A stretch of DNA of 12,274 nt from Pseudomonadales bacterium. GTDB taxonomy: Bacteria > Pseudomonadota > Gammaproteobacteria > Pseudomonadales > Natronospirillaceae. The position numbers and the translations under genes are program-made. Below the pieces are notes generated by a model, which did no database searches, was not told the DNA's origin, and saw only the letters and a list, made by a program, of their open reading frames with translations. The DNA is taken from positions 19,127 to 31,400 of the forward strand of contig JALJPK010000045.1 of assembly GCA_022968985.1 (NCBI GenBank). The letters are read 5' to 3'. Positions 2,191-12,274 of this stretch are shown here, one piece after another (position 1 is the stretch's first letter; the number at the start of each line of letters is the position of its first letter).

Positions 2191-2667
2191 ATGACAACTA
2201 TACATATATTAAACGGAACAATAGGAAGCGGAAAAACAACCTACGCAAAACAAATAGAAGCTAAATCAAATGCAGTACGTTTTACAGTTGATGAATGGAT
2301 GTTGGTATTATTTGGTGAGGCGGATATGGAGCGTGATGTATTCGAATCAAAAATTAAATTTTTAGAAACCCAATTTAAAACCTTGGCTGAATCATTCATT
2401 AACAATAATGTGGATGTGATAATGGATTTTGGAGGCTGGGGAAAGTCCGATCGAGATCAAATGCGTGTTTGGGCAAATACATTAAATTGTGAATTAAATA
2501 TGGTGTATTTTGATACCCCATTTGATGTTTGTAAATCACGTGTTTTAAAACGTACACAAGCAAAAACAGAAAATAATTATATGTTTGACGAACAAACCAT
2601 TGATACCTTATTTGGTTTTTTTGAAATACCTGAAGCTAATGAAGAATTTCATGAAATTGTTAAGTAA
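2191..2667 (+). CDS. Small P-loop NTPase / predicted kinase (AAA_33 / zeta-toxin-like or CPT-like fold), 158 aa
   Basis: N-terminal Walker A GTIGSGKTT immediately after the start. The size and architecture are typical of stand-alone predicted nucleotide/small-molecule kinases. AGGGA RBS upstream. Confidence 0.7.
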   Translation: MTTIHILNGTIGSGKTTYAKQIEAKSNAVRFTVDEWMLVLFGEADMERDVFESKIKFLETQFKTLAESFINNNVDVIMDFGGWGKSDRDQMRVWANTLNCELNMVYFDTPFDVCKSRVLKRTQAKTENNYMFDEQTIDTLFGFFEIPEANEEFHEIVK

Positions 2668-2738: not shown

Positions 2739-3095
2739 TTATTTCTTATCGATTAAGTCAACTTTAACCTTCGTTTTAGTCACCATCGATTTTTCAAGAC
2801 TCGATATTTGTTTACCCAAGTTCTTAACCCTCTGCCAAATATCATGATCCATATCAAGTTTGTGTCGCATTGCACTTACAACAGGTAATAGACTTGTTGT
2901 AATCGCATCACTCATAGAATGTAATACTTTATCCATTCCAGGTACGGGTTGATTCACCACTTCAACATGCATCTTCGCTTCACTTATTAACTTAGACATT
3001 TGTTGAATGGCTTGTGTGACAGGCACTAAGGCATCGGGTTTTTCTATATTAATAGATTCATTAATATTAAATAAACCGTCATTTATTTTAGCCAC
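2739..3095 (-). CDS. Hypothetical 118-aa protein, last gene of the minus-strand operon; candidate partner of the giant ATPase
   Basis: Non-repetitive ORF that starts 12 bp after the stop of the 1632-aa gene (GTG start at 3095, weak SD). No transmembrane segment and no recognisable motif. Its operonic position is the only functional clue. Confidence 0.5.
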   Translation of the reverse strand: MAKINDGLFNINESINIEKPDALVPVTQAIQQMSKLISEAKMHVEVVNQPVPGMDKVLHSMSDAITTSLLPVVSAMRHKLDMDHDIWQRVKNLGKQISSLEKSMVTKTKVKVDLIDKK

Positions 3096-3107: not shown

Positions 3108-6100
3108 TTAAGTGGTTGAGTCTGCATCGTCGCCACCCATAGATTGTATACGTGCGTAATCTTGTTTGATTTGGCTCCAACGGATTTTTTCATCATCATT
3201 TAAACTGTTGTTTAACTCACCTAATTTTAATAAGTTTTCTTCTGCGCCGGTGGTTAATGTTTGTGCTTCACCTACGTAATGATCACGTATCAAATCGTTT
3301 AGCTCTTTATCGTTCATTATACCGCTGATTTTTTCAGCCATTTTACTCATATTACGATAACTACCTTGTAACTTAAATGAAGGTTCAATTCGGTATTTAT
3401 CATCTTGAGCCGCTGAAATAATATATTGTTGATTTACTTTTAAAACAACTTCCTGCACTTTATAAAGTTTCTTTAATACATCAACAATTTCTTTTACTTC
3501 GGCACCACTATAATTGTGTTCTAAATCCGTTGATGCAATATTTTCACCTTCAGCCATACGCATTAATTTATATACGTCTTGTATATTACGTGTTGCTAAA
3601 GGGGCTAATACCGCATTCGAGGTTAAGCAGTTTTCGATATAACTCATGGAGAATTGTTTTTCGCGTCCGCTTAATACATCACCTAAATTATAAATGTCAG
3701 CTCGGTTCGCTAACATGTCTGGAATTTTAAATGACTCACCTGATTCTGTATAAGGGTTACCTGCCATAATCACACAGAATTTTTTACCGCGTAAATCATA
3801 GGTTTTACTTTTGCCTTTCCAAACTCCGTCAATACGTCTAGAGCCATCACAAAGTGAAATAAATTTTTGTAAAAACTCAGGGTGGGTATGTTGAATGTCA
3901 TCTAAGTAGAGCATGACATTGTTGCCCATCTCAAAACCTAAATTGATTTTTTCTAACTCTTGGCGGGCCGTTGCGTTAGGTGCTTGTTCTGGATCCAGTG
4001 ACATCACATCATGACCCAAAGACGGGCAGTTGATTTTCATAAAAATCAAACCCATTCGGCTGGCTACGTATTCCATTAATGTGGTTTTACCGTAACCTGG
4101 TGGTGATATTAATAATAATAAACCCATTAAATCGGTTCGTTTATTAGCGCCTACGGTACCCATTTGTTTGGCTAAATTGTCACCAATAATAGGTAGATAC
4201 ACATCGTTAATTAATTTGTTACGCACAAACGAACTCAATGGTTTCGCTTTAAAATCTTCTAAACGTAATGATTTTCGTTCTTGTTGCACTATGTCGTGGC
4301 GAAGCTCTAAAAACGCTTTGTATTGTGGTACAACACTTTGTACATGATGATTTAAACGCTGGGTAAATTCATCTAAAGCTAAAGTCATAGTTTGTTGTTT
4401 GATTAATTTATGATCCCCCATTAATCCTTCAATATTTTGTTGAAGATCAATGGCTTTAGATTGCATTTTTAAATCTTGTTGGCACAAAATAATAGCAATG
4501 GCTTCGGGTATAAATCGAACGGCATCTGATTGCTGGGTTGATTCTATAAACGCATGTAACCAGGTTTGTAATAAAGCCCATTGTTTATCTAACGCGCCAT
4601 CAAGTTGGGTCAGTGTCTTTTTATAGGAATCTAAATGCGAAATACTACTTAAGTGCGATTCTAAATCGGTTACTAAAGTTTGTGCATTTAAGCTACAGGA
4701 AAACACTAACTCGTCTTGAGCTAATTCGTAAGATAAATAATCAGCGCTTAACTTTAAGTCCTGTTCGTTTAAATCTAAATTAAACTCAGAAAAGTACTCA
4801 GTGATGTCGTGTAATAACTCTTCGCGTATTTTGCTATAAGCTTGATTACTATTAAATGTTTGGGCCAAAATTTCAGCACTTTGTGCACGTACTGGCCACA
4901 AATTATCAGTGACTTTTTTGACGTTAAAGTTCCAATACATTAATGCCAATGCACGTGGTTTAGGTGGGTAACGTAATAAACCACATTCTTTGCGAATACT
5001 TAATAAAGCCAATAATAATTTGGCCGCATCATAATCATGAATGCCTTTTTCGTAACCTTCTTGATAACGTGTGGCGCTAAAGGTTTTAATTATTTTTAAT
5101 AGCTCTTCTTCTGAGCAGTCATATAATTGATTAAAACTCAAACCATCTTGAGTTGCTTCGGCAGCATTTAAAATAGAAAATACTAAATATTCAGCACGAT
5201 ATACTTCGTCTGTTTCAGATATAAACGATTGATCCCAATAGGATTGTAATTTAATTAATTCTTGATTATCAACTGTGTCGAAATAATCCGTGCCAGTTAA
5301 ATGTAACGCAATTTCATTATTCTTTGGAATAATGGTTAAATCAACATTTTGAGTGTTCACACTAAAACGGTGACGACCCAATTTAATGATGTTACCGCCA
5401 TCTTCAAAGATGTCTTGTTTATCGCGTTGGGCGCGTACGGCTTGATCACGGGCAAACTTAAGTCGACTATCAATATCGTCTGCACGCACACTGTCACCCA
5501 GTTTACGCAGTTGATCACATAGTCCACGACACTTAGATACCATTGCGTCAGACGCAAAATAGGTATTAATTTCGTCTGCTGTATTAAAGCTTGAGCTTTT
5601 GCGTGTCACTCCTACTAAAATACGATCAGCGGCATTGGATAAGTTATGTACTTTACGTTGTTGCTCGTCTAACAACGATTGTTTAAGCGCTTCAAAGGTT
5701 TCATAAACCTGTTCACGTTTAGTTAAAATATCACCTAAAAACTCATCGTATTCACTAAAGCGGGATTCTAATTCTTCAAGTTGGGCTAATAAACGGGTTA
5801 ATTGTTCATCACAACTTTGTGGTGTAAGCGCTAATGTTTGTGCGTTAGCAATCGATTGTGAAAATAAAGTAAACTGTGCAGAAAATTCTGCAATGGTTTC
5901 AGAAGAACCTAACGATTTTAAATGTTGTTTTGATATGGCTTTGGCTTGGTTTAACTTACCGTATACTTCTGAAATGGATTCTAAAATTGCAGTTCGTATA
6001 GTGGCGTCATCTACTTTTAAACTGCCAAGCATTTTAGTTAATAAATCTAAGCCTTTAGTCATGTCGTTTAAATCATCAAGCACAGGTTGTAAAGTAACCA

Positions 6101-8006
6101 CTGTTTCTATTTGATCTAAATTATCTGTAATCTCAATAATACGATTGCTATATTGATCTAACGCATGGGGCTGGTTTAAAAAACGAATGGTTTTTTTAGA
6201 TAAATCGGTTTGTTCTTTTTCTAAGCTCTCATCAAATTGTTTTATTCGTTCTAAGTCGATATAACGTAATTCTTTGATTGTAATTAAATGCCCTCTAAAC
6301 GAAGAGAATTTATCAAGCGCGGTAACAAAGTCAGAAGGTTGTTCCCATTTGAATTTTTTAATGTCTGAAAAAAGTCTTTTGATTTGTGTGTCCGCTTTAG
6401 TAATCGCTTCGTTGGCTTGATTACGAATACTTTCAACTTTTTCAAATTCGTCTAATACTAATTCAGAAGTTTGTTGAATGTCTTTTACTTGTATACTTAA
6501 TGCAGGTAATCCGTCATCTTCAATCCAATGATAGGTGTCAAAAACCGCTTCACATTGTTCGATTAAATTTTCATACATTAATGCACTGACGTTTTCATCA
6601 TGAGTCATTTTAACAATAGAATTAATGTGCGAAATAGCACGCACTAATTCAGGGTTGCCAATACGCCCTAATAATGAATTGTTATCAGGCTGGCTCTGTA
6701 AAAACTCATCACTGAAAAATGGTGTTTGCCAAATTTGCATAGGATGCAAACGAGAAGGCTCATCGGATTCTGCTGAAAACAAAATTCCTTGTCCGTTATC
6801 AAACAAACAAAATCCATGACCAAATAATGGGGTGGATAACTCTTTACGAATTAAGTTGTAATTAAATAAGCCAAACTTGCCTTCGTCTGCTTTATAAAAT
6901 TTATATAAAATATCTTCACCGTTAGGTGATTTTTTAGCTGACTCAAAAATCATTCCATCGGCGTTTGATCCAAATGATTTAGTTTCGCCACTTTGCAAAT
7001 AATAACCACCAGGAAATATAATACCGTGGTCTTCAGGTAGCTGAATACAACTGTGGGCAAGGGCATCAATTCGATTCACTTGATTATTAAGTGTATTAAA
7101 TACTAAATAACGCCAATTGGTTTCGCGGTAAGGTAATATTTTTAATAATATTAATGATCCTAATTTTGCATAAAATATCCCCGCATCCGCTAACGACTGA
7201 TTTTTATCGTCCACATCTTCACGGTAAATACCTAAACCGTCTTGCGTATTATTTTCAACTTTAATTGTTAAATCACCATTAACGGTTTCAACAAATACCT
7301 CATCTAAAATACTGATGTGAGGATTTTTACCTGTCACGTGATTTTTACGTGTGGTGCCTATCCATTCAAAATCGTGCGTAGGGATTACATCCAGTTCACG
7401 CTCACCTCGGTCATCTATATAACTGATACTTTCATCGTTATTGATTGCCCAACGAAATACTCGAATGTCGTTTAAAGATTTTCCAATCTGAAAAAAGGCT
7501 AGTACTCGTTTGTTGTTATTTTCTAATTTAATTAATTTAGCATTTTTGTAATAACTATAAAGCTCCTTAAAATCCTTTACGAACTCGTTATCATCTAAAA
7601 AACTGTCTTTTATTGCAGTGGGTTCAATGGCAAACCCCTCTTCGTTTTTCAGTTTGTATAAACCAAATACATCAGCAACACTGATTTCGTTTTTTAAACC
7701 AATAAAAACGTTATAACCAAATAATAGTTTGTCTTTTACTTGAACGATGTCTCTGGCTTCACAGTTATTTTCGGTGCGCACTCGGACGCGACCAATCACT
7801 TCCATTGAGGTTTCACCAAATTCTTCTAAACGTAAAACGTTTAAAGAGTTAGAAGTTTGCTCTAATAAATTCGCTTGTTGTTGTAGGCGTTTTTTGATTA
7901 ATTCGTAAGCACTGCCTTGGGTAACGGCGTCTTCGATATTTGAATTATTGTCTTTTTTTACTGCGACCACGGAAAAATCCCTCAAGAATTTGAATTGACA
8001 TGACAT
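3108..8006 (-). CDS. Giant (1632 aa) multidomain protein with a C-terminal MoxR/AAA_5-type AAA+ ATPase. It may belong to the poorly characterised family annotated 'ATPase involved in DNA repair' (DUF3686 + AAA); this is recalled from memory and unverified.
   Basis: A single uninterrupted 4.9-kb ORF. The N-terminal ~480 aa is beta-rich with many aromatic/Gly motifs. The central ~800 aa is helical/coiled-coil-like. The C-terminal module has Walker A LLLLISPPGYGKTTLMEYVA, Walker B NNVMLYLDDIQH, sensor-1 FCVIMAGNPY and an Arg finger MLANRADIY. This pattern is typical of the AAA_5/MoxR/McrB/dynein clade. The start ATG at 8004-8006 has a weak SD and lies 6 nt after a 13-bp hairpin. Confidence 0.85.
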   Translation of the reverse strand: MSCQFKFLRDFSVVAVKKDNNSNIEDAVTQGSAYELIKKRLQQQANLLEQTSNSLNVLRLEEFGETSMEVIGRVRVRTENNCEARDIVQVKDKLLFGYNVFIGLKNEISVADVFGLYKLKNEEGFAIEPTAIKDSFLDDNEFVKDFKELYSYYKNAKLIKLENNNKRVLAFFQIGKSLNDIRVFRWAINNDESISYIDDRGERELDVIPTHDFEWIGTTRKNHVTGKNPHISILDEVFVETVNGDLTIKVENNTQDGLGIYREDVDDKNQSLADAGIFYAKLGSLILLKILPYRETNWRYLVFNTLNNQVNRIDALAHSCIQLPEDHGIIFPGGYYLQSGETKSFGSNADGMIFESAKKSPNGEDILYKFYKADEGKFGLFNYNLIRKELSTPLFGHGFCLFDNGQGILFSAESDEPSRLHPMQIWQTPFFSDEFLQSQPDNNSLLGRIGNPELVRAISHINSIVKMTHDENVSALMYENLIEQCEAVFDTYHWIEDDGLPALSIQVKDIQQTSELVLDEFEKVESIRNQANEAITKADTQIKRLFSDIKKFKWEQPSDFVTALDKFSSFRGHLITIKELRYIDLERIKQFDESLEKEQTDLSKKTIRFLNQPHALDQYSNRIIEITDNLDQIETVVTLQPVLDDLNDMTKGLDLLTKMLGSLKVDDATIRTAILESISEVYGKLNQAKAISKQHLKSLGSSETIAEFSAQFTLFSQSIANAQTLALTPQSCDEQLTRLLAQLEELESRFSEYDEFLGDILTKREQVYETFEALKQSLLDEQQRKVHNLSNAADRILVGVTRKSSSFNTADEINTYFASDAMVSKCRGLCDQLRKLGDSVRADDIDSRLKFARDQAVRAQRDKQDIFEDGGNIIKLGRHRFSVNTQNVDLTIIPKNNEIALHLTGTDYFDTVDNQELIKLQSYWDQSFISETDEVYRAEYLVFSILNAAEATQDGLSFNQLYDCSEEELLKIIKTFSATRYQEGYEKGIHDYDAAKLLLALLSIRKECGLLRYPPKPRALALMYWNFNVKKVTDNLWPVRAQSAEILAQTFNSNQAYSKIREELLHDITEYFSEFNLDLNEQDLKLSADYLSYELAQDELVFSCSLNAQTLVTDLESHLSSISHLDSYKKTLTQLDGALDKQWALLQTWLHAFIESTQQSDAVRFIPEAIAIILCQQDLKMQSKAIDLQQNIEGLMGDHKLIKQQTMTLALDEFTQRLNHHVQSVVPQYKAFLELRHDIVQQERKSLRLEDFKAKPLSSFVRNKLINDVYLPIIGDNLAKQMGTVGANKRTDLMGLLLLISPPGYGKTTLMEYVASRMGLIFMKINCPSLGHDVMSLDPEQAPNATARQELEKINLGFEMGNNVMLYLDDIQHTHPEFLQKFISLCDGSRRIDGVWKGKSKTYDLRGKKFCVIMAGNPYTESGESFKIPDMLANRADIYNLGDVLSGREKQFSMSYIENCLTSNAVLAPLATRNIQDVYKLMRMAEGENIASTDLEHNYSGAEVKEIVDVLKKLYKVQEVVLKVNQQYIISAAQDDKYRIEPSFKLQGSYRNMSKMAEKISGIMNDKELNDLIRDHYVGEAQTLTTGAEENLLKLGELNNSLNDDEKIRWSQIKQDYARIQSMGGDDADSTT
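3650..4140 (-). other. AAA+ ATPase module (MoxR/AAA_5-like) within the giant protein, approx. aa 1290-1450
   Basis: The Walker A codons lie at ~4082-4126 (rc encodes MGLLLLISPPGYGKT). Walker B, sensor 1 and the Arg finger follow within ~130 codons. About 180 aa of C-terminal helical extension lies beyond. Confidence 0.7.
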
Positions 8007-8012
8007 CTTTAA

Positions 8013-8050
8013 AAAGCACTTTAAGATTCCTTTGAGCCTTAAAGTGCTTT
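8013..8050 (-). promoter_or_regulatory. Perfect 13-bp inverted repeat (12-nt loop) in the flotillin-to-giant-ATPase spacer; intra-operon attenuator/terminator or translation-occluding hairpin
   Basis: aaagcactttaag (8013-8025) and cttaaagtgcttt (8038-8050) are exact reverse complements. On the minus-strand transcript the 3' arm ends GCUUUUUAAAG immediately before the AUG at 8006. The loop contains AAAGGAAU. No comparable structure occurs in the other intergenic gaps of the operon. Confidence 0.45.
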
Positions 8051-8068
8051 GTAACTAAACGACTGTTT

Positions 8069-8115
8069 TAATCGTCAGATTCTAATCGTTACAAACTATT
8101 CTAATCGTCAGATTC
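8069..8115. repeat. Direct repeat duplicating the last codons and stop of the flotillin gene (taatcgtcagattc ×2, with a partial third copy taatcgt)
   Basis: Copies at 8069-8082 and 8102-8115, plus a partial copy at 8083-8089. On the minus strand each copy reads GAATCTGACGATTA(A/G), i.e. E-S-D-D-stop. The real C-terminus is …IESDD-TAG and the upstream copy encodes ESDD-TAA. Confidence 0.6.
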
Positions 8116-10164
8116 GATTGATGTCATCAATTGCTTAACTAGATTTTTTTGTTCGTTAGTGCCACTTTTAACTACATGTCCTAAAAATGCACTCACTGTT
8201 AGGTTTTGCAAGTTACCGCTACCAGCACTTAAACCAGCTACGATATCTTTTAAATCACCCACAAAACTTTCGTCACCATTCATGTGGCCTTCAATTGCTT
8301 TTGTTACTATCTTGCTCTTATTCGCTACACCATCAATTGATTTACCAACGGCTAATGCGTTAACAAATTTCTCGAAGTAATCGCCGTTACCACCAACTAT
8401 ATCAATGTTCGCATCACGTAATGCAGTGGATAAAACTTCTGCTTGGTCATGTGCAATTTCAACATTAGACATAATACGTTGCATTGTTTGTTCATGCGTG
8501 AAATCAAGATCCATACGGAATTCTTCATGGCTACGTGTGTCTTCATCCATTTGTTTCATGGCTAAAAATTTCTTCTCTAAACCTTCTGCTTCTGCTGAGT
8601 ACTTATCAGCAATGTTTCTAGCTTCTGCTTCACCGTATAATTTAAGTGCTGACGCATCTGCTTCTTTAACTGTGGCCGCTGCAATACCAATTTTTTCATC
8701 ACCGGCTGCTTGAGCGGTTAATTTCTCAACTAATACTTTAGCGTTAGCTAAACCTGATTTTTCATCGGCATCGGCTTTGGCTTCTTGTACTTTAACATCT
8801 GCTAAGCCTGGGGCTGCATGAATCGCTTCAATACCTTTGGCTTCATTTCTTTTAGCTTCGGCGTCTTTTTCAGCTGATTTTAAACGGCCTTCAGCTAATA
8901 ATAATGCTTCTTTAGCCTTATGCGTGGCTTTAATTTCGTCTGCTTCTGCCGCTTTGATTTCTTTTACTAATGACTGTTGAGCATGTGCTTCAGCAGTCAC
9001 AATCATGGCGTCTTTTTCACGTTCTGCTTTTGAAACTAAACGCACTTTTTCGATCGCTTCTTCTTCAACAGCTACGGTTCTTTCAACACTCACACGTTCA
9101 CGAACTATATCAGCAATATTTTTACGTTCAATTTCTACTGCTTTTTCTTTTTCAATGGTTTCTAGTTCAACAGCACGATGACGTTGTACTTCTTCTAACT
9201 CTTGTGCGCGTTTCACTTGTTCTGTTTCAGTTACAACAACACGTTGACGATTTAAGTTGGCTACTTCTACTTCACGATGTTTGTTTTCTTCAGCAATTAG
9301 AATTTTTTCTTCTGCTGCAATTCGCGCATTTTCATATTTTAACTTCTCTTCTTGTTGTATTTTTTTTGTTTCAGCTTCTTCGCGAGCGATAACAGTTAAT
9401 ACTTCGCGCTGTTGTTTAGCTTGTGCGTCTTTTTCTTGGCGTTCTAACTCTAATATAGTTTCACGAGTTTCTACGTCTTTCTTTTTAATCTTCATTTCTT
9501 CTTCGCGTCGATGCTCATTGGTTTCAATGTGTTCAATCGCAGTTAGACGAATGATTTTACGAATACCCTGTGCATCCAATATATTGTCACGATCCAAACT
9601 TTCAATAGGTGTTTGTTCTAAATAATCAATTGCTGCATCTTCTAATACATAACCATTTAAATCTTCGCCAATAACACGAATAATGTCATCACGAAACTTG
9701 TCACGCTCTTGATATAAATCAGTAAAGTCTAAACGTTTACCCACTGTTTTTAATGCTTCAGAAAACTTAGCACTGAATAAATTTTCCATTGTTTCTTGTT
9801 CAGAGGCACGCTCGCACCCAATTGCTTGAGCCACACGAAGTACGTCTTCTTTTGTTTTATTAACCCGAACAAAAAATGCCACTTTAATATCGGCTCGAAT
9901 GTTATCCATACAGATCAAACCGTCTTTGCCACGACGATCAATCTCGATCGTTTTTAATGAAATGTTCATAATTTCTTTGCGATGAATAACCGGTAATACT
10001 AGGCGACCGGTAAATGTTACTTCGGGTTCTTCGCGGGTGGTGTTAACGATCATGGCATTACCTTGATCGACTTTTTTGTAAAAACTTGCGTATAAAATGC
10101 AAATGCCGATAACAATTACGACTAAGACTAGAGCTATTGGTAAAATTATTGAAAAAAGATCCAT
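8101..10164 (-). CDS. yqiK: Flotillin-family protein (SPFH/band-7 domain + long Glu/Ala-rich coiled coil), YqiK-like
   Basis: N-terminal TM helix (IILPIALVLVVIVIGICILYA). SPFH core with the conserved …ADIKVAFFVRV… block as in E. coli YqiK. A ~300-aa EA-rich coiled-coil region (EEKLKYENARIAAEEKILIAEENKHREVEVANL…). Total 687 aa. AGGAA SD 8 nt upstream of the ATG at 10164. Confidence 0.85.
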   Translation of the reverse strand: MDLFSIILPIALVLVVIVIGICILYASFYKKVDQGNAMIVNTTREEPEVTFTGRLVLPVIHRKEIMNISLKTIEIDRRGKDGLICMDNIRADIKVAFFVRVNKTKEDVLRVAQAIGCERASEQETMENLFSAKFSEALKTVGKRLDFTDLYQERDKFRDDIIRVIGEDLNGYVLEDAAIDYLEQTPIESLDRDNILDAQGIRKIIRLTAIEHIETNEHRREEEMKIKKKDVETRETILELERQEKDAQAKQQREVLTVIAREEAETKKIQQEEKLKYENARIAAEEKILIAEENKHREVEVANLNRQRVVVTETEQVKRAQELEEVQRHRAVELETIEKEKAVEIERKNIADIVRERVSVERTVAVEEEAIEKVRLVSKAEREKDAMIVTAEAHAQQSLVKEIKAAEADEIKATHKAKEALLLAEGRLKSAEKDAEAKRNEAKGIEAIHAAPGLADVKVQEAKADADEKSGLANAKVLVEKLTAQAAGDEKIGIAAATVKEADASALKLYGEAEARNIADKYSAEAEGLEKKFLAMKQMDEDTRSHEEFRMDLDFTHEQTMQRIMSNVEIAHDQAEVLSTALRDANIDIVGGNGDYFEKFVNALAVGKSIDGVANKSKIVTKAIEGHMNGDESFVGDLKDIVAGLSAGSGNLQNLTVSAFLGHVVKSGTNEQKNLVKQLMTSIESDD

Positions 10165-10200: not shown

Positions 10201-10848
10201 TTATTTATTAAGGTTAGTTTTAAATTCATCATTACTGATTACTTGATAAAGGTTATTTGTTTTGTTGTAACTAATCGCTATCACAATGTCACCTTTTTTA
10301 AAGCCTTCTGCTTTAGATGCACGAATTCTTACAATTATATCATCGCCGTTATTTGAGCTAATTCGACCCTGTCCAAATTCATCATCAACCGTTAGGGAGG
10401 TGACTTTACAAGGTTGACCCAAAAAATCGATTTTTGTTTTTGCTTTATTTTCGTTTGATAATTTTCTTAGTGGTTGAATTAATTTTCCTGTAATAAATAC
10501 AGCAATTATAAAACTTCCAACTAAAGTAGTTGAGCTAAAAATAAACTGTAATATTGAGCTTGGAATAAGAGGTGTTAAGAAAATTGATGTAAGGTAGGTA
10601 ATTGTCCATGCTAAAAATATTATCAGTGTTAATACAATTGTGAATGGTACACCAGAGAGTCCTAGAGTATGTAATAATCCAGCAAATCCAGGGATATCAG
10701 TTTCTGTATCAAAATCAACATCAAATGAAACAACATCAATATCCATAGCACCTATAATAGTGAATAACCATAAAACCAATAACATTGCTAAAAATATAGT
10801 GTAAATCCCAGTTGGATAACTACTTAATACATTCCAAATTTCATTCAT
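10201..10848 (-). CDS. yqiJ: YqiJ/NfeD-like inner-membrane protein (flotillin-associated partner)
   Basis: 215 aa with 3-4 predicted TM helices and a C-terminal soluble NfeD-like beta domain (…GQGRISSNNGDDIIVRIRASKAEGFKKGDIVIAI…). It sits directly upstream of the flotillin gene with a 36-bp gap, mirroring the E. coli yqiJ-yqiK pair. AAGGTGG SD upstream. Confidence 0.75.
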   Translation of the reverse strand: MNEIWNVLSSYPTGIYTIFLAMLLVLWLFTIIGAMDIDVVSFDVDFDTETDIPGFAGLLHTLGLSGVPFTIVLTLIIFLAWTITYLTSIFLTPLIPSSILQFIFSSTTLVGSFIIAVFITGKLIQPLRKLSNENKAKTKIDFLGQPCKVTSLTVDDEFGQGRISSNNGDDIIVRIRASKAEGFKKGDIVIAISYNKTNNLYQVISNDEFKTNLNK

Positions 10849-10864: not shown

Positions 10865-11185
10865 TTATTGTTTATTTTTTTGAGTGGCCAATACTAATTC
10901 TTCTTTAATACGATTGCGAATTTCTATTGTGTTATTGGGGTCCAATTCATAACGCTTGCCAAGCATTAAATAATCAGCCGGTGACAAACTAATACTTAAT
11001 CTTGGGCGCACTGGTTTTTTACGAGGTAATTGGATGATCTCTCGTATTAAATCCGAAGGGCTTAAATCATTTTCTATCGCAGTAATACGTAAAATTTTTG
11101 ATTGTGCCTGCTCTAATTCAAATACCACTTGTACCGCTTTGATATTCTTATCAGAGACACTCCACGATTTTGCTATTTTTTTCAA
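10865..11185 (-). CDS. Hypothetical 106-aa protein with a possible ribbon-helix-helix-like C-terminal half
   Basis: ORF that exactly fills the gap between PspA-like and yqiJ-like genes. Its stop overlaps the yqiJ SD. Likely TTG start at 11185, with an AGGT ~9 nt upstream. The segment RPRLSISLSPADYLMLGKRYELDPNNTIEIRNRIKEEL resembles a strand-helix-helix (RHH) pattern. No TM segments. The gene call is uncertain because of the non-ATG start. Confidence 0.45.
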   Translation of the reverse strand: MKKIAKSWSVSDKNIKAVQVVFELEQAQSKILRITAIENDLSPSDLIREIIQLPRKKPVRPRLSISLSPADYLMLGKRYELDPNNTIEIRNRIKEELVLATQKNKQ

Positions 11186-11207: not shown

Positions 11208-11909
11208 TTATGACTGCTTAGTTTTAGATGATTTCTTTAGGCGATCTAACACTGAGTGAGCAGAATTTTTATCTTTGATAATGCCAGCTTCTTCCAAGCG
11301 GGTTTGTAGACTTTCGTCTTTTGACGATTCTGCTAATTCGATATTGGCTGCTGCTTGATCTTCTTTTCTTTGCTGACGTTCACGAATACGTGCTAATGAA
11401 TCTGTGGCGCTACTTAATGACGAGTTCGAACCATTGGCATTTTTATTGGCTAAATCATTGGCTTTTTGAACTTTATCAGTGGTTTCAACCAATCTTAATT
11501 CACGTTCACAGGATTGAATATTACTATCAGCTTGTGATATCGCTTTTTTTAACGTAATTACTTGAGACTCAAAACTATTTAAAACGGCTTGATTAGCATC
11601 CCTTTGTTGCTCTAAATTTGCAATTTTTTCAGATACTTCTAAGGCTAAAGTCTCATCGTCTTTATCTAGTGCTTTTATTACATAAGACTCATGCTCTGTA
11701 ATGGAATCAGTAGCTGTCTTTAATGTACGTTCAATGGCTATTTTTTGCGCCACTATGTTTGTTAGACTCACTTTAGATTGCTCTAATGCTAGTTTCGCAT
11801 CACGAATTTCTTGTTCTAAAATACGAAAAGCTTGAGTGTCTACAATGGCTTCGCCTACTTCAGTAACACCGCCACGTACAGCTGTAATTAATTTTTTAAA
11901 AATACTCAT
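11208..11909 (-). CDS. yjfJ: PspA/IM30 (ESCRT-III superfamily) protein, YjfJ-like
   Basis: The N-terminus MSIFKKLITAVRGGVTEVGEAIVDTQAFRILEQEIRDAKLALEQSK matches the PspA/IM30 amphipathic helix plus the conserved RxLEQxIRDAK block of E. coli YjfJ. The remainder is coiled-coil, with a C-terminal …LEEAGI…SAHSVLDRLK… region like YjfJ. The ATG at 11907-11909 has a GGAG SD 8 nt upstream. The ORF-track start is a TTG extension. Confidence 0.85.
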   Translation of the reverse strand: MSIFKKLITAVRGGVTEVGEAIVDTQAFRILEQEIRDAKLALEQSKVSLTNIVAQKIAIERTLKTATDSITEHESYVIKALDKDDETLALEVSEKIANLEQQRDANQAVLNSFESQVITLKKAISQADSNIQSCERELRLVETTDKVQKANDLANKNANGSNSSLSSATDSLARIRERQQRKEDQAAANIELAESSKDESLQTRLEEAGIIKDKNSAHSVLDRLKKSSKTKQS

Positions 11910-11922
11910 ATTATTCTCCAAA

Positions 11923-12274
11923 TTAAGTTAGGTATTCTGACACAGCGTCAATTGCTTCTAATACGTTGTCGCTGAGTGTCTCAATTTCTTTGATTAAATC
12001 ATCAGTACTTGATTGGGGGGATAATGCACCAAACATAATATATTGATTACTAATTTTTGAAAATGCCGATAATGGAATCGATACATTTAATATCAACATC
12101 GCTTCAGTTAAGTTCGATTTTTGTGCTGACTTAACTTGATCGTCTGCAAATAAATACGTAATAACTAATATTTGGCCTTCATCAACCGTCAGGTAAATAG
12201 GGAACTCTTCTCTATCGGGTACTGTAATACAAGCTACTGATCCATCACCTGCAAGTTTATCAATATTCAGCTTA
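11923..12274 (-). CDS. yjfI: YjfI-like (DUF2170) protein; C-terminal part only, start lies beyond window end
   Basis: The minus-strand frame is open to the window edge. It encodes …ITVPDREEFPIYLTVDEGQILVITYLFADDQVKSAQKSNLTEAMLILNVSIPLSAFSKISNQYIMFGALS…EIETLSDNVLEAIDAVSEYLT*. This matches the conserved PDREEFP…FGALS…IETLSDNVLEA blocks of E. coli YjfI. The stop lies 13 nt before the PspA-like start. Confidence 0.75.
   Translation of the reverse strand, partial: KLNIDKLAGDGSVACITVPDREEFPIYLTVDEGQILVITYLFADDQVKSAQKSNLTEAMLILNVSIPLSAFSKISNQYIMFGALSPQSSTDDLIKEIETLSDNVLEAIDAVSEYLT

Follow-up and report, generated by a model that had tools for sequence, protein, structure and literature searches.

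A DUF3686-family AAA+ ATPase encoded directly after a flotillin gene in a bac-type envelope operon: a candidate remodeller of bacterial membrane scaffolds

The stretch of DNA analysed here (12,274 nucleotides, hereafter the window) derives from contig JALJPK010000045.1 of a Pseudomonadales bacterium (NCBI GenBank assembly GCA_022968985.1) and is identical to scaffold_237 of ENA ERZ23489742, a Pseudomonadales metagenome-assembled genome (MAG). Its minus strand carries a tight, co-directional row of genes that encode, in order, a DUF2170 protein, PspA, a 106-amino-acid (aa) protein, a YqiJ-like membrane protein, a flotillin-like protein and a giant ATPase, which is the main subject of this study. 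The intergenic gaps along the row are 14, 22, 16, 36 and 94-130 bp from the DUF2170 gene to the ATPase gene. The row is the copy in this MAG of a bac-type envelope operon and the counterpart of Pseudomonas aeruginosa bacABCDE. All features are on the minus strand unless stated otherwise.

The ATPase open reading frame (ORF) comprises 1632 codons when counted from an ATG at position 8006 (3108..8006). An initial annotation, made from the DNA sequence, had noted the four AAA+ motifs PPGYGKTT, LYLDD, AGNPY and NRAD in this ORF. All four are present, and an alignment of 79 family members, extending down to about 30% identity, reveals that K1307, D1369, D1370, R1390, N1417 and R1435 are invariant. 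These include the lysine of the Walker A GKT sequence (K1307), both acidic residues of Walker B (D1369 and D1370), sensor 1 (N1417) and the residue at the arginine-finger position (R1435). Walker B takes the form hhhhDD, and never DE, in 79 of 79 aligned members; the D1369-D1370 codons occupy window positions 3900-3905.

The initial annotation also named a family that combines DUF3686 with an AAA module, and this assignment proved accurate. Residues 48-493 (6528..7865) match Pfam DUF3686 with an E-value of 6.3e-192 over nearly the complete profile (positions 2-448 of 448). DUF7902 is matched by residues 614-697 (5916..6167; 3e-25 / 3e-26), which lie inside a helical middle region (about 521-1240). 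The alpha/beta core of the AAA+ module spans residues about 1297-1440 (3687..4118), as located by Pfam, by invariant alignment columns, and by the AlphaFold2 (AF2) and Foldseek analyses described below. In a scan of the full-length ORF, the AAA (6e-7, residues 1297-1416) and AAA_5 (1e-6) profiles match within residues 1297-1422. The C-terminal module, which had been predicted to match AAA+ hidden Markov models, does so when scanned in isolation: AAA scores 33.5 bits (6.4e-8), above its gathering cut-off, and AAA_5 scores 31.7 bits (1.8e-7) against a cut-off of 22, whereas AAA_3 stays below its cut-off (15 versus 27 bits). Since the classical AAA profile fits the module as well as AAA_5 does (33.5 versus 31.7 bits), these scores favour neither clade. 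From its sequence, we assign the protein to the DUF3686-AAA+ family, defined by DUF3686 (PF12458), DUF7902 (PF25472) and AAA, with motifs that resemble those of MoxR/AAA_5 proteins. The family is large: of 8,000 candidates that were scored, more than 6,600 qualify as homologues at E<=1e-5, and the N-terminal domain matches 687 clusters at 50% identity.

Structure prediction supports a three-part protein. AF2 models residues 1-520 with a pLDDT (predicted local distance difference test) of 91.7 as a long helix, about seven four-stranded sheets and then further helices. DUF3686 is predicted to form a divergent beta-propeller of about 7 x 4 strands, with a helical bundle packed against it. Residues 521-1632 are modelled at pLDDT 84 as mostly long helices, in agreement with the helical middle proposed initially, together with two small beta sub-domains and the AAA+ core at the end. 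Within this core, a beta-hairpin (residues 1391-1404) precedes the sensor-1 strand, and a lid and more helices follow. Foldseek searches of the PDB returned dynein heavy chains with a low TM-score (E 4e-7), RuvB (4e-5), the MoxR-class proteins CbbQ and NorQ (about 1e-4), and also MCM, Lon and ClpA/C. The only classical-clade AAA protein in the top 50 was Pex1/6, at rank 49, and neither Vps4 nor any other meiotic-clade ATPase was among these 50. Sequence searches of the PDB, with the protein itself or with the 79-sequence profile as query, found no solved relative beyond the P-loop. Pfam detects no protease or other catalytic domain in the ATPase, and no hydrophobic segment was found, so the protein is predicted to be cytoplasmic.

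These features bear on the suggestion, made initially, that the ATPase fulfils a role like that of Vps4. As in the Vps4 (CdvC) and ESCRT-III systems, a gene for an AAA+ ATPase stands beside a gene for a polymer of the ESCRT-III superfamily (PspA), and the remodelling job proposed for the ATPase would be analogous. However, the window protein is about four times larger than Vps4, it lacks an MIT domain (Pfam, E<=0.01), and its N-terminus is a helix plus propeller-like domain where Vps4 has MIT. The classical core of Vps4 is devoid of a hairpin, whereas the window ATPase has one before sensor 1. Also unlike Vps4, it carries a MoxR-like 'NP...G...IP..L.NR' pattern, with the post-sensor-1 stretch reading 'AGNPYTESGE.F.IPDMLANRAD'. 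This sensor-1 to arginine-finger motif resembles the MoxR pattern, 'ATQNP.E..G...LP.A.LDRF'. Given the lack of an MIT domain, the non-classical core and a stretch after sensor 1 that follows the MoxR pattern, the relation to Vps4 appears, from sequence and models, to be one of analogy and not of homology.

The MoxR/AAA_5 class (CbbQ, NorQ, RavA), together with RuvB, provides a closer comparison, with CbbQ, NorQ and RuvB being the best fold matches among compact domains. The window ATPase differs from this class by its huge N-terminal extension and its DD Walker B. The AF2 model predicts no beta-hairpin between strand 2 and helix 2 that would represent the helix-2 insert of MoxR proteins, and no partner with a VWA domain was reported among the neighbouring genes.

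The ATPase ORF ends at a single in-frame TAA (3108..3110), identified from the reading frame and by comparison with homologues, which parts it from a second ORF listed as 118 aa (2739-3095). Read through this stop, the window sequence is ...DDADSTT*LANQVAKINDG..., and a 77%-identical homologue from Marinicellulosiphila continues across the same position (DEADSATKLANQVAKINDG) as a single protein of 1750 aa. The closest relative has a lysine where the window has the stop, and one base change in an AAA lysine codon would suffice to give TAA. All other loci contain an uninterrupted ORF of 1650-1900 aa (mostly about 1750 aa), with the exception of L067, in which it is in two pieces, and the tail is encoded within the giant ORF in 31 other loci. 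The initial annotation had listed the 118-aa protein as a separate gene and as a possible interaction partner of the ATPase, a proposal that has to be abandoned. It lies in the same frame beyond a single TAA, and the segment 2739..3107 (122 codons plus a stop) encodes the C-terminal tail that relatives carry as part of the ATPase.

The tail is 70.5% identical to that of the homologue P0002, compared with 72% for the N-terminal and 70% for the middle region. Its ratio of nonsynonymous to synonymous changes (pN/pS) is 0.26, versus 0.27-0.29 in the N-terminal and middle regions, although these are rough values because synonymous sites are saturated. Since identity and pN/pS in the tail equal those of the rest of the protein, the stop appears to be a nonsense change of very recent origin, a polymorphism, or else an error in the assembly of the MAG. 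One could instead argue that the gene has been inactivated by the nonsense codon and that the module is decaying here, given an in-frame TAA where relatives read through. We regard such decay as somewhat unlikely, because the sequence is intact on either side of the stop and the tail is constrained like the remainder of the protein. In addition, the proteins of some lineages are shorter (about 1650-1680 aa), and phmmer detects no tail in them. Because these relatives naturally lack a detectable tail, the truncated 1632-aa product, without the last 122 residues, may still be active.

The other end of the gene requires a smaller correction. Both the closest homologue and this contig's own database entry begin at the position of V13, so that translation probably starts at a GTG at 7970 and not at the ATG at 8006. 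The 94-bp gap to the flotillin gene that had been given initially is correct for the ATG, but measured from the probable GTG the distance from the flotillin stop is 130 bp.

The gene immediately upstream of the ATPase gene (8101..10164) encodes a 687-aa flotillin-like SPFH protein that resembles YqiK and BacD/PaFlo3. Its layout is an N-terminal membrane anchor (residues 1-33), followed by Band_7 and a long coiled coil. The original assignment as a flotillin is upheld by a Band_7 match when residues 1-210 are scanned alone (2.3e-10, 41 bits) and by BLASTP similarity to E. coli YqiK (4e-34 over 435 aa). In contrast, the full-length protein yields no Pfam match, its score for Flot (PF15975) is below the cut-off (E 0.011, 16.2 versus 27 bits), and scans of NCBIfam and the PDB gave nothing useful. 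The long coiled coil probably triggers the composition-bias filter of HMMER and thereby masks Band_7 at full length. Orthologues of this flotillin are likewise devoid of full-length Pfam annotation, including in precomputed tables. Because full-length scans miss Band_7 in the protein and in its orthologues, the YqiK-like flotillin subfamily is systematically under-annotated.

Upstream of the flotillin gene lies the gene for a 215-aa multi-pass membrane protein (10201..10848), YqiJ-like and BacC-like, with several hydrophobic segments in residues 7-127 and a C-terminal beta domain. Neither this protein, nor its halves, nor 40 members of its family gave a relevant Pfam match (neither NfeD nor DUF1449), and a PDB search returned no match. 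However, an hhalign comparison of the family profile with E. coli YqiJ gave a probability of 95.6% (E 1.1e-8, 141 columns). The Hymenobacter orthologue is named 'DUF1449 family protein' by NCBI, and the P. aeruginosa counterpart has been termed a 'short NfeD' (PMC13086221). The initial label of NfeD-like gene is therefore acceptable in the loose sense of YqiJ homology only, and not as a match to the NfeD or DUF1449 families of Pfam. With one N-terminal anchor in the flotillin and several hydrophobic segments in the YqiJ-like protein, both partners are membrane-anchored. The E. coli yqiJK genes are homologous to these two genes and occur in the same order. No giant ATPase gene is adjacent to yqiJK, and YqiK (553 aa) is about 130 residues shorter than the flotillin of the window.

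The remaining genes of the row include two that were missing from the initial annotation. One of these is the 106-aa gene (10865..11185), for which Pfam and PDB searches were negative. The other is a DUF2170 / YjfI / BacA-like gene (11923..12273; Pfam DUF2170 7.8e-30), of which the window end leaves the 3' part (116 codons plus stop). The complete gene encodes 147 aa on the parent contig (1455-1898 in the parent-contig locus, L001), and members of the DUF2170 / BacA family are termed CesT/Tir-like chaperones in the literature (PMC11237479). Its stop lies 14 bp before the ATG of the PspA/IM30 gene (BacB / YjfJ-like; 11208..11909), whose earlier identification is supported by a Pfam PspA_IM30 match (3.9e-39) in which residues 6-231 align with positions 1-217 of the 220-position profile. 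The PspA start is likely the ATG at 11909, which is preceded by GGAGA.

We asked how regularly these genes accompany the ATPase by scanning genomes with a 7-sequence alignment, using one genome per species, and by retaining the 80 closest loci (N-terminal domain 50-66% identical). Proteins of the window were compared with six-frame ORFs of each locus (phmmer), and only loci with enough upstream DNA entered each denominator. In 78 of 78 loci, the gene directly upstream of the ATPase gene, and in the same orientation, is flotillin-like, and a YqiJ-like gene is present upstream in 76/76. PspA is found upstream in 50 of 72, each time together with DUF2170. None of these four genes occurs downstream of the ATPase gene in the surveyed loci. 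The initial annotation had proposed that an absence of such linkage would speak against a common function, and the linkage is instead very strong, among the clearest that comparative genomics can reveal.

More distant family members retain the association. The trio of YqiJ-like, flotillin and ATPase genes persists at about 30% identity in loci L084 (rhomboid, 245 aa, 683 aa, ATPase), L085 (212 aa, 647 aa, ATPase, TelA), L086 and L091. Annotated replicons of Bacteroidota, Actinomycetota and Deinococcota also have the trio. In Hymenobacter the order is Tir-like chaperone, PspA, DUF1449 protein, 722-aa protein and ATPase, in Streptomyces it is small protein, flotillin and ATPase, and in Deinococcus it is 198 aa, 652 aa and ATPase. 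Thus, the order DUF2170, PspA, YqiJ-like, flotillin and ATPase is common to 50 related loci and Hymenobacter, and each related locus that was examined has a gene of the ATPase family directly after a flotillin gene, an arrangement found in at least five phyla. The conserved core of the operon consists of the YqiJ-like protein, the flotillin and the ATPase, and PspA with DUF2170 is a frequent but optional addition.

The position of the PspA gene varies. It is co-directional and upstream in those close relatives that have it, convergent and abutting directly downstream of the trio in L091, and 6 kb downstream of the trio in L086. Three different arrangements argue for a repeated, selected association. 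They could also be taken to mean that the ATPase is dedicated to the disassembly of PspA, an ESCRT-III superfamily protein, as an analogue of Vps4, with flotillin being only a membrane adaptor. The upstream PspA and DUF2170 genes in 50/72 loci and the other arrangements near the ATPase gene in distant members are consistent with this explanation, as is the co-regulation of Bac proteins in P. aeruginosa (PMC10948618), and such an enzyme would fill a gap named in a recent review (PMC7619361). However, 22 of the 72 close loci, as well as Streptomyces, Deinococcus, L084 and L085, have the flotillin but no nearby PspA. The ATPase also has no MIT domain and its fold falls outside the classical clade. 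We therefore judge dedicated PspA disassembly to be quite unlikely. Because PspA is only a facultative neighbour, the flotillin/YqiJ pair appears, from gene content, to be the better candidate partner of the ATPase.

Genes that follow the ATPase gene suggest a different relationship with flotillin. A rhomboid gene (PF01694, 9.5e-19) and a PLD-family gene (PLDc_2, 3e-29) are each found downstream in 23 loci, and L003, L022 and L073 are among those with one or both. SPFH scaffolds are known to be coupled to membrane AAA+ machines, as with HflK/C-FtsH and with prohibitin and the m-AAA protease, and SPFH cages can enclose AAA+ proteases (HflK/C-FtsH). By analogy, the flotillin might be a platform that confines or regulates the ATPase, whose clients would lie elsewhere, among membrane or envelope proteins or among lipids. 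Damaged proteins, for instance, might be extracted together with the downstream-encoded rhomboid protease and PLD-family enzyme. This is the main rival to a remodelling role, and the obligate adjacency to the flotillin and YqiJ-like genes fits it, as do the immediately downstream rhomboid and PLDc_2 genes. Nevertheless, the likeness to HflK/C-FtsH, namely an SPFH scaffold paired with an AAA+ machine at the membrane, has limits. The window ATPase lacks a membrane anchor and a protease or other catalytic domain detectable by Pfam, and its partner is of the flotillin type and not of the HflK/C type. Moreover, the rhomboid and PLD genes are missing from the window and from most loci. On this evidence, a scaffolded enzyme with other clients is unlikely.

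The initial annotation had also considered a defence module, and this proposal finds little in the data. Large nucleoside triphosphatases are common in defence systems, and a scaffold-borne anti-phage or abortive-infection module would be a further example. In P. aeruginosa, phage infection induces 17 genes, PA3728-PA3732 included (PMC12041424). However, PADLOC produced no meaningful match, the only ones being to IetA (0.0016, 15.9 bits), over 30 residues that surround the P-loop, and to LmuB (2.3e-4), within the coiled coil of PspA. Induction of PspA by phage is a general envelope-stress response. The ATPase family is represented in 0 of 50,697 phage records and in only 13 of 72,556 records of plasmids, most of which are replicons of very large size. 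To the left of the row, the window contains unrelated and partly convergent genes (AAA_33 kinase-like, esterase and an ABC-F fragment), and the gene next to the ATPase gene is the convergent AAA_33 kinase-like gene (2191-2667, plus strand). The neighbours observed are typical chromosomal genes, none of which belongs to a mobile element or a defence system. A defence function is therefore very improbable.

The family carries the database name 'ATPase involved in DNA repair' or 'DNA repair ATPase', which would make the protein a DNA-repair enzyme. Apart from this Pfam/NCBI name, the only feature in favour is a similarity to RuvB at the level of the P-loop. The invariant neighbours encode membrane proteins, a context that had already been held against a repair function, and no DNA-binding or nuclease domain was found in the ATPase. 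In the Pseudomonas locus L073, recJ is two genes downstream of the ATPase gene, and this proximity may, as a guess, have prompted the name. We see no visible basis for it, and consider participation in DNA repair to be extremely improbable.

An operon of this kind is already known, and the window adds no new kind of system, contrary to the initial view that it might represent a candidate new system. Ravi, Anantharaman, Aravind, Gennaro and colleagues (mSystems 2024, section 19) described an operon of CesT/Tir-PspA, band-7/flotillin, AAA+ and YqiJ/YuaF components, suggested that it takes part in ATP-dependent assembly and in membrane dynamics, and reported that abbreviated operons without PspA are more widespread (PMC11237479). 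All four components of their architectures are in the window, nothing essential differs, and our survey agrees on the wider spread of PspA-less forms. In P. aeruginosa, the locus was recognised as a biofilm-associated cluster (PMC2587700) and later extended to bacABCDEF (PMC10948618). Mutation of PA3731 (PspA) causes defects in biofilm formation, swarming, rhamnolipid production and virulence, and osmotic shock induces the gene (PMC2587700). Reverse transcription PCR across every bac junction in strain PA14, including bacD-PA14_16190 (bacE), demonstrated co-transcription (PMC10948618), as had been anticipated for the row in the window, whose gene order matches. A bacA mutant has every Bac protein increased 6-13 fold, and the crystal structure of BacA is like those of type III secretion chaperones (PMC10948618). 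The flotillin gene PA14_16180 encodes PaFlo3, whose deletion phenotypes are mild (PMC13086221), and cystic-fibrosis isolates recurrently carry mutations in PA3728, a gene annotated 'ATPase' (PMC8190622). In Bacillus subtilis, an SPFH protein ties PspA to the membrane (PMC8581546). The term DUF3686 was not found in the literature searched.

The P. aeruginosa bacABCDEF operon (PA3732-PA3727 / PA14_16140-16200) contains the same families in the same order as the window operon through the ATPase, and its flotillin PaFlo3 (about 76 kDa) is like that of the window in position and family. By gene position, and by the annotation of PA3728 as 'ATPase' (PMC8190622), the window ATPase is the counterpart of BacE / PA3728 / PA14_16190. 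The P. paraeruginosa locus L073 follows the bac order and continues with a PLD-family gene, a 225-aa gene and recJ; the N-terminal domain of its ATPase is about 54% identical to that of the window protein. From this position, BacF is likely the PLD-family protein. The window differs in having no bacF-type sixth gene (the PLD-family gene of L073) after the ATPase gene, no sigma-54 consensus and an ATPase gene interrupted by a stop. It further differs in having the additional 106-aa gene and a promoter palindrome, GACATAWTATGTC. What is added here to the published operon are the linkage counts (78/78, 76/76 and 50/72), the structure predictions, the DD Walker B, the flotillin pair as the invariant partner, and a regulatory variant in one lineage that comprises the 106-aa protein and the conserved palindrome.

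The 106-aa gene is present in 8 of 83 loci and is inside the operon in seven (L001, L002, L004, L005, L010, L029 and L071). The 13-bp palindrome GACATAWTATGTC is found in exactly these seven loci, where it overlaps the DUF2170 start codon or lies no more than about 50 bp upstream of it (1430-1459 in L001), and in 0 of 83 further loci that were fetched. The start of the DUF2170 gene on the parent contig, just outside the window, carries two tandem copies of a palindrome, GACATAATATGTC. Because of this perfect co-occurrence, the 106-aa protein is a good candidate for an operon-specific repressor, with GACATAWTATGTC as its putative operator. By eye, its sequence can be read as possibly that of a tandem ribbon-helix-helix regulator; an hhalign comparison with CopG gave a probability of only 14%. 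The top PDB matches of the 106-aa profile were Vps4 MIT domains (E 0.76, 13 bits), and these were treated as chance.

Other regulatory elements were considered. A sigma-54 (RpoN) promoter has been proposed upstream of the gene that opens the P. aeruginosa bac operon. No TGGCAC-N5-TTGCW site with two or fewer mismatches was found in the upstream intergenic region of L001, nor in L073, and the published site may be non-consensus. The gap between the flotillin and ATPase genes contains a predicted stem-loop (8015..8048) with a stem of 12-13 bp (arms AAAGCACUUUAAG / CUUAAAGUGCUUU) and a U run after it. The predicted fold of positions 7995-8105 has a free energy of -26.1 kcal/mol (z -3.5), and 1 of 200 shuffled sequences folds as well. 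This stem-loop is a possible attenuator or a candidate element for mRNA processing or stability, and may lower expression of the ATPase relative to that of the scaffold proteins. Rfam has no match in the window, and promoter-like sites in the window are fewer than in shuffled sequence and hence uninformative. In eight loci (e.g. L016 9590-9832), the interval that separates the flotillin and ATPase genes contains an 80-aa ORF with weak TerB / EF-hand-like similarity (E about 0.005).

We propose that the ATPase is a cytoplasmic, ATP-driven remodeller of flotillin assemblies and, facultatively, of PspA assemblies, and assign this proposal a probability of about 0.5. The flotillin/YqiJ scaffold on the inner face of the cytoplasmic membrane would recruit the ATPase, probably through its propeller and helical regions. 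The AAA+ module would then oligomerise and spend ATP on reshaping the flotillin (SPFH) assembly, taking it apart or recycling it, and would also act on the ESCRT-III-like PspA polymer where PspA is co-encoded. Such remodelling might occur during envelope stress, for example upon osmotic shock or phage infection. A function like that of Vps4 would thus have arisen independently, from a MoxR/AAA_5-like ATPase.

Several observations weigh against this proposal. The DD Walker B may indicate slow, regulated or switch-like hydrolysis instead of a processive motor. By eye, the segment from strand 2 to helix 2 shows no aromatic pore-loop motif, which makes substrate threading in the manner of Vps4 or ClpX doubtful, and a fold search with the middle region gave no informative match. 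The copy of the gene in the window has a premature stop. Distant family members were spot-checked one by one at eight loci, one of which had too little upstream DNA. Deletion of paFlo3, the flotillin gene, in P. aeruginosa lowers biofilm formation by only about 20% (PMC13086221). Finally, the literature search recovered no biochemical, structural, genetic or interaction result for the ATPase from any organism.

A broader version of the remodelling proposal casts the DUF3686 ATPase as the energy-consuming partner that has been missing for bacterial membrane scaffolds: a MoxR-like counterpart of Vps4, evolved independently, that would grip both flotillin assemblies and PspA polymers through its propeller and helical regions and use ATP to take them apart or reshape them. 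We offer this version tentatively and regard it as rather doubtful. If true, an ATP-driven cycle of flotillin and ESCRT-III remodelling would exist in bacteria of at least five phyla, in contrast with the statement in a 2025 review that a Vps4-like ATPase appears to be absent from bacteria (PMC7619361). If flotillin or PspA assemblies are disassembled or recycled in bacteria, the DUF3686 ATPase family would be the most obvious candidate for this activity.

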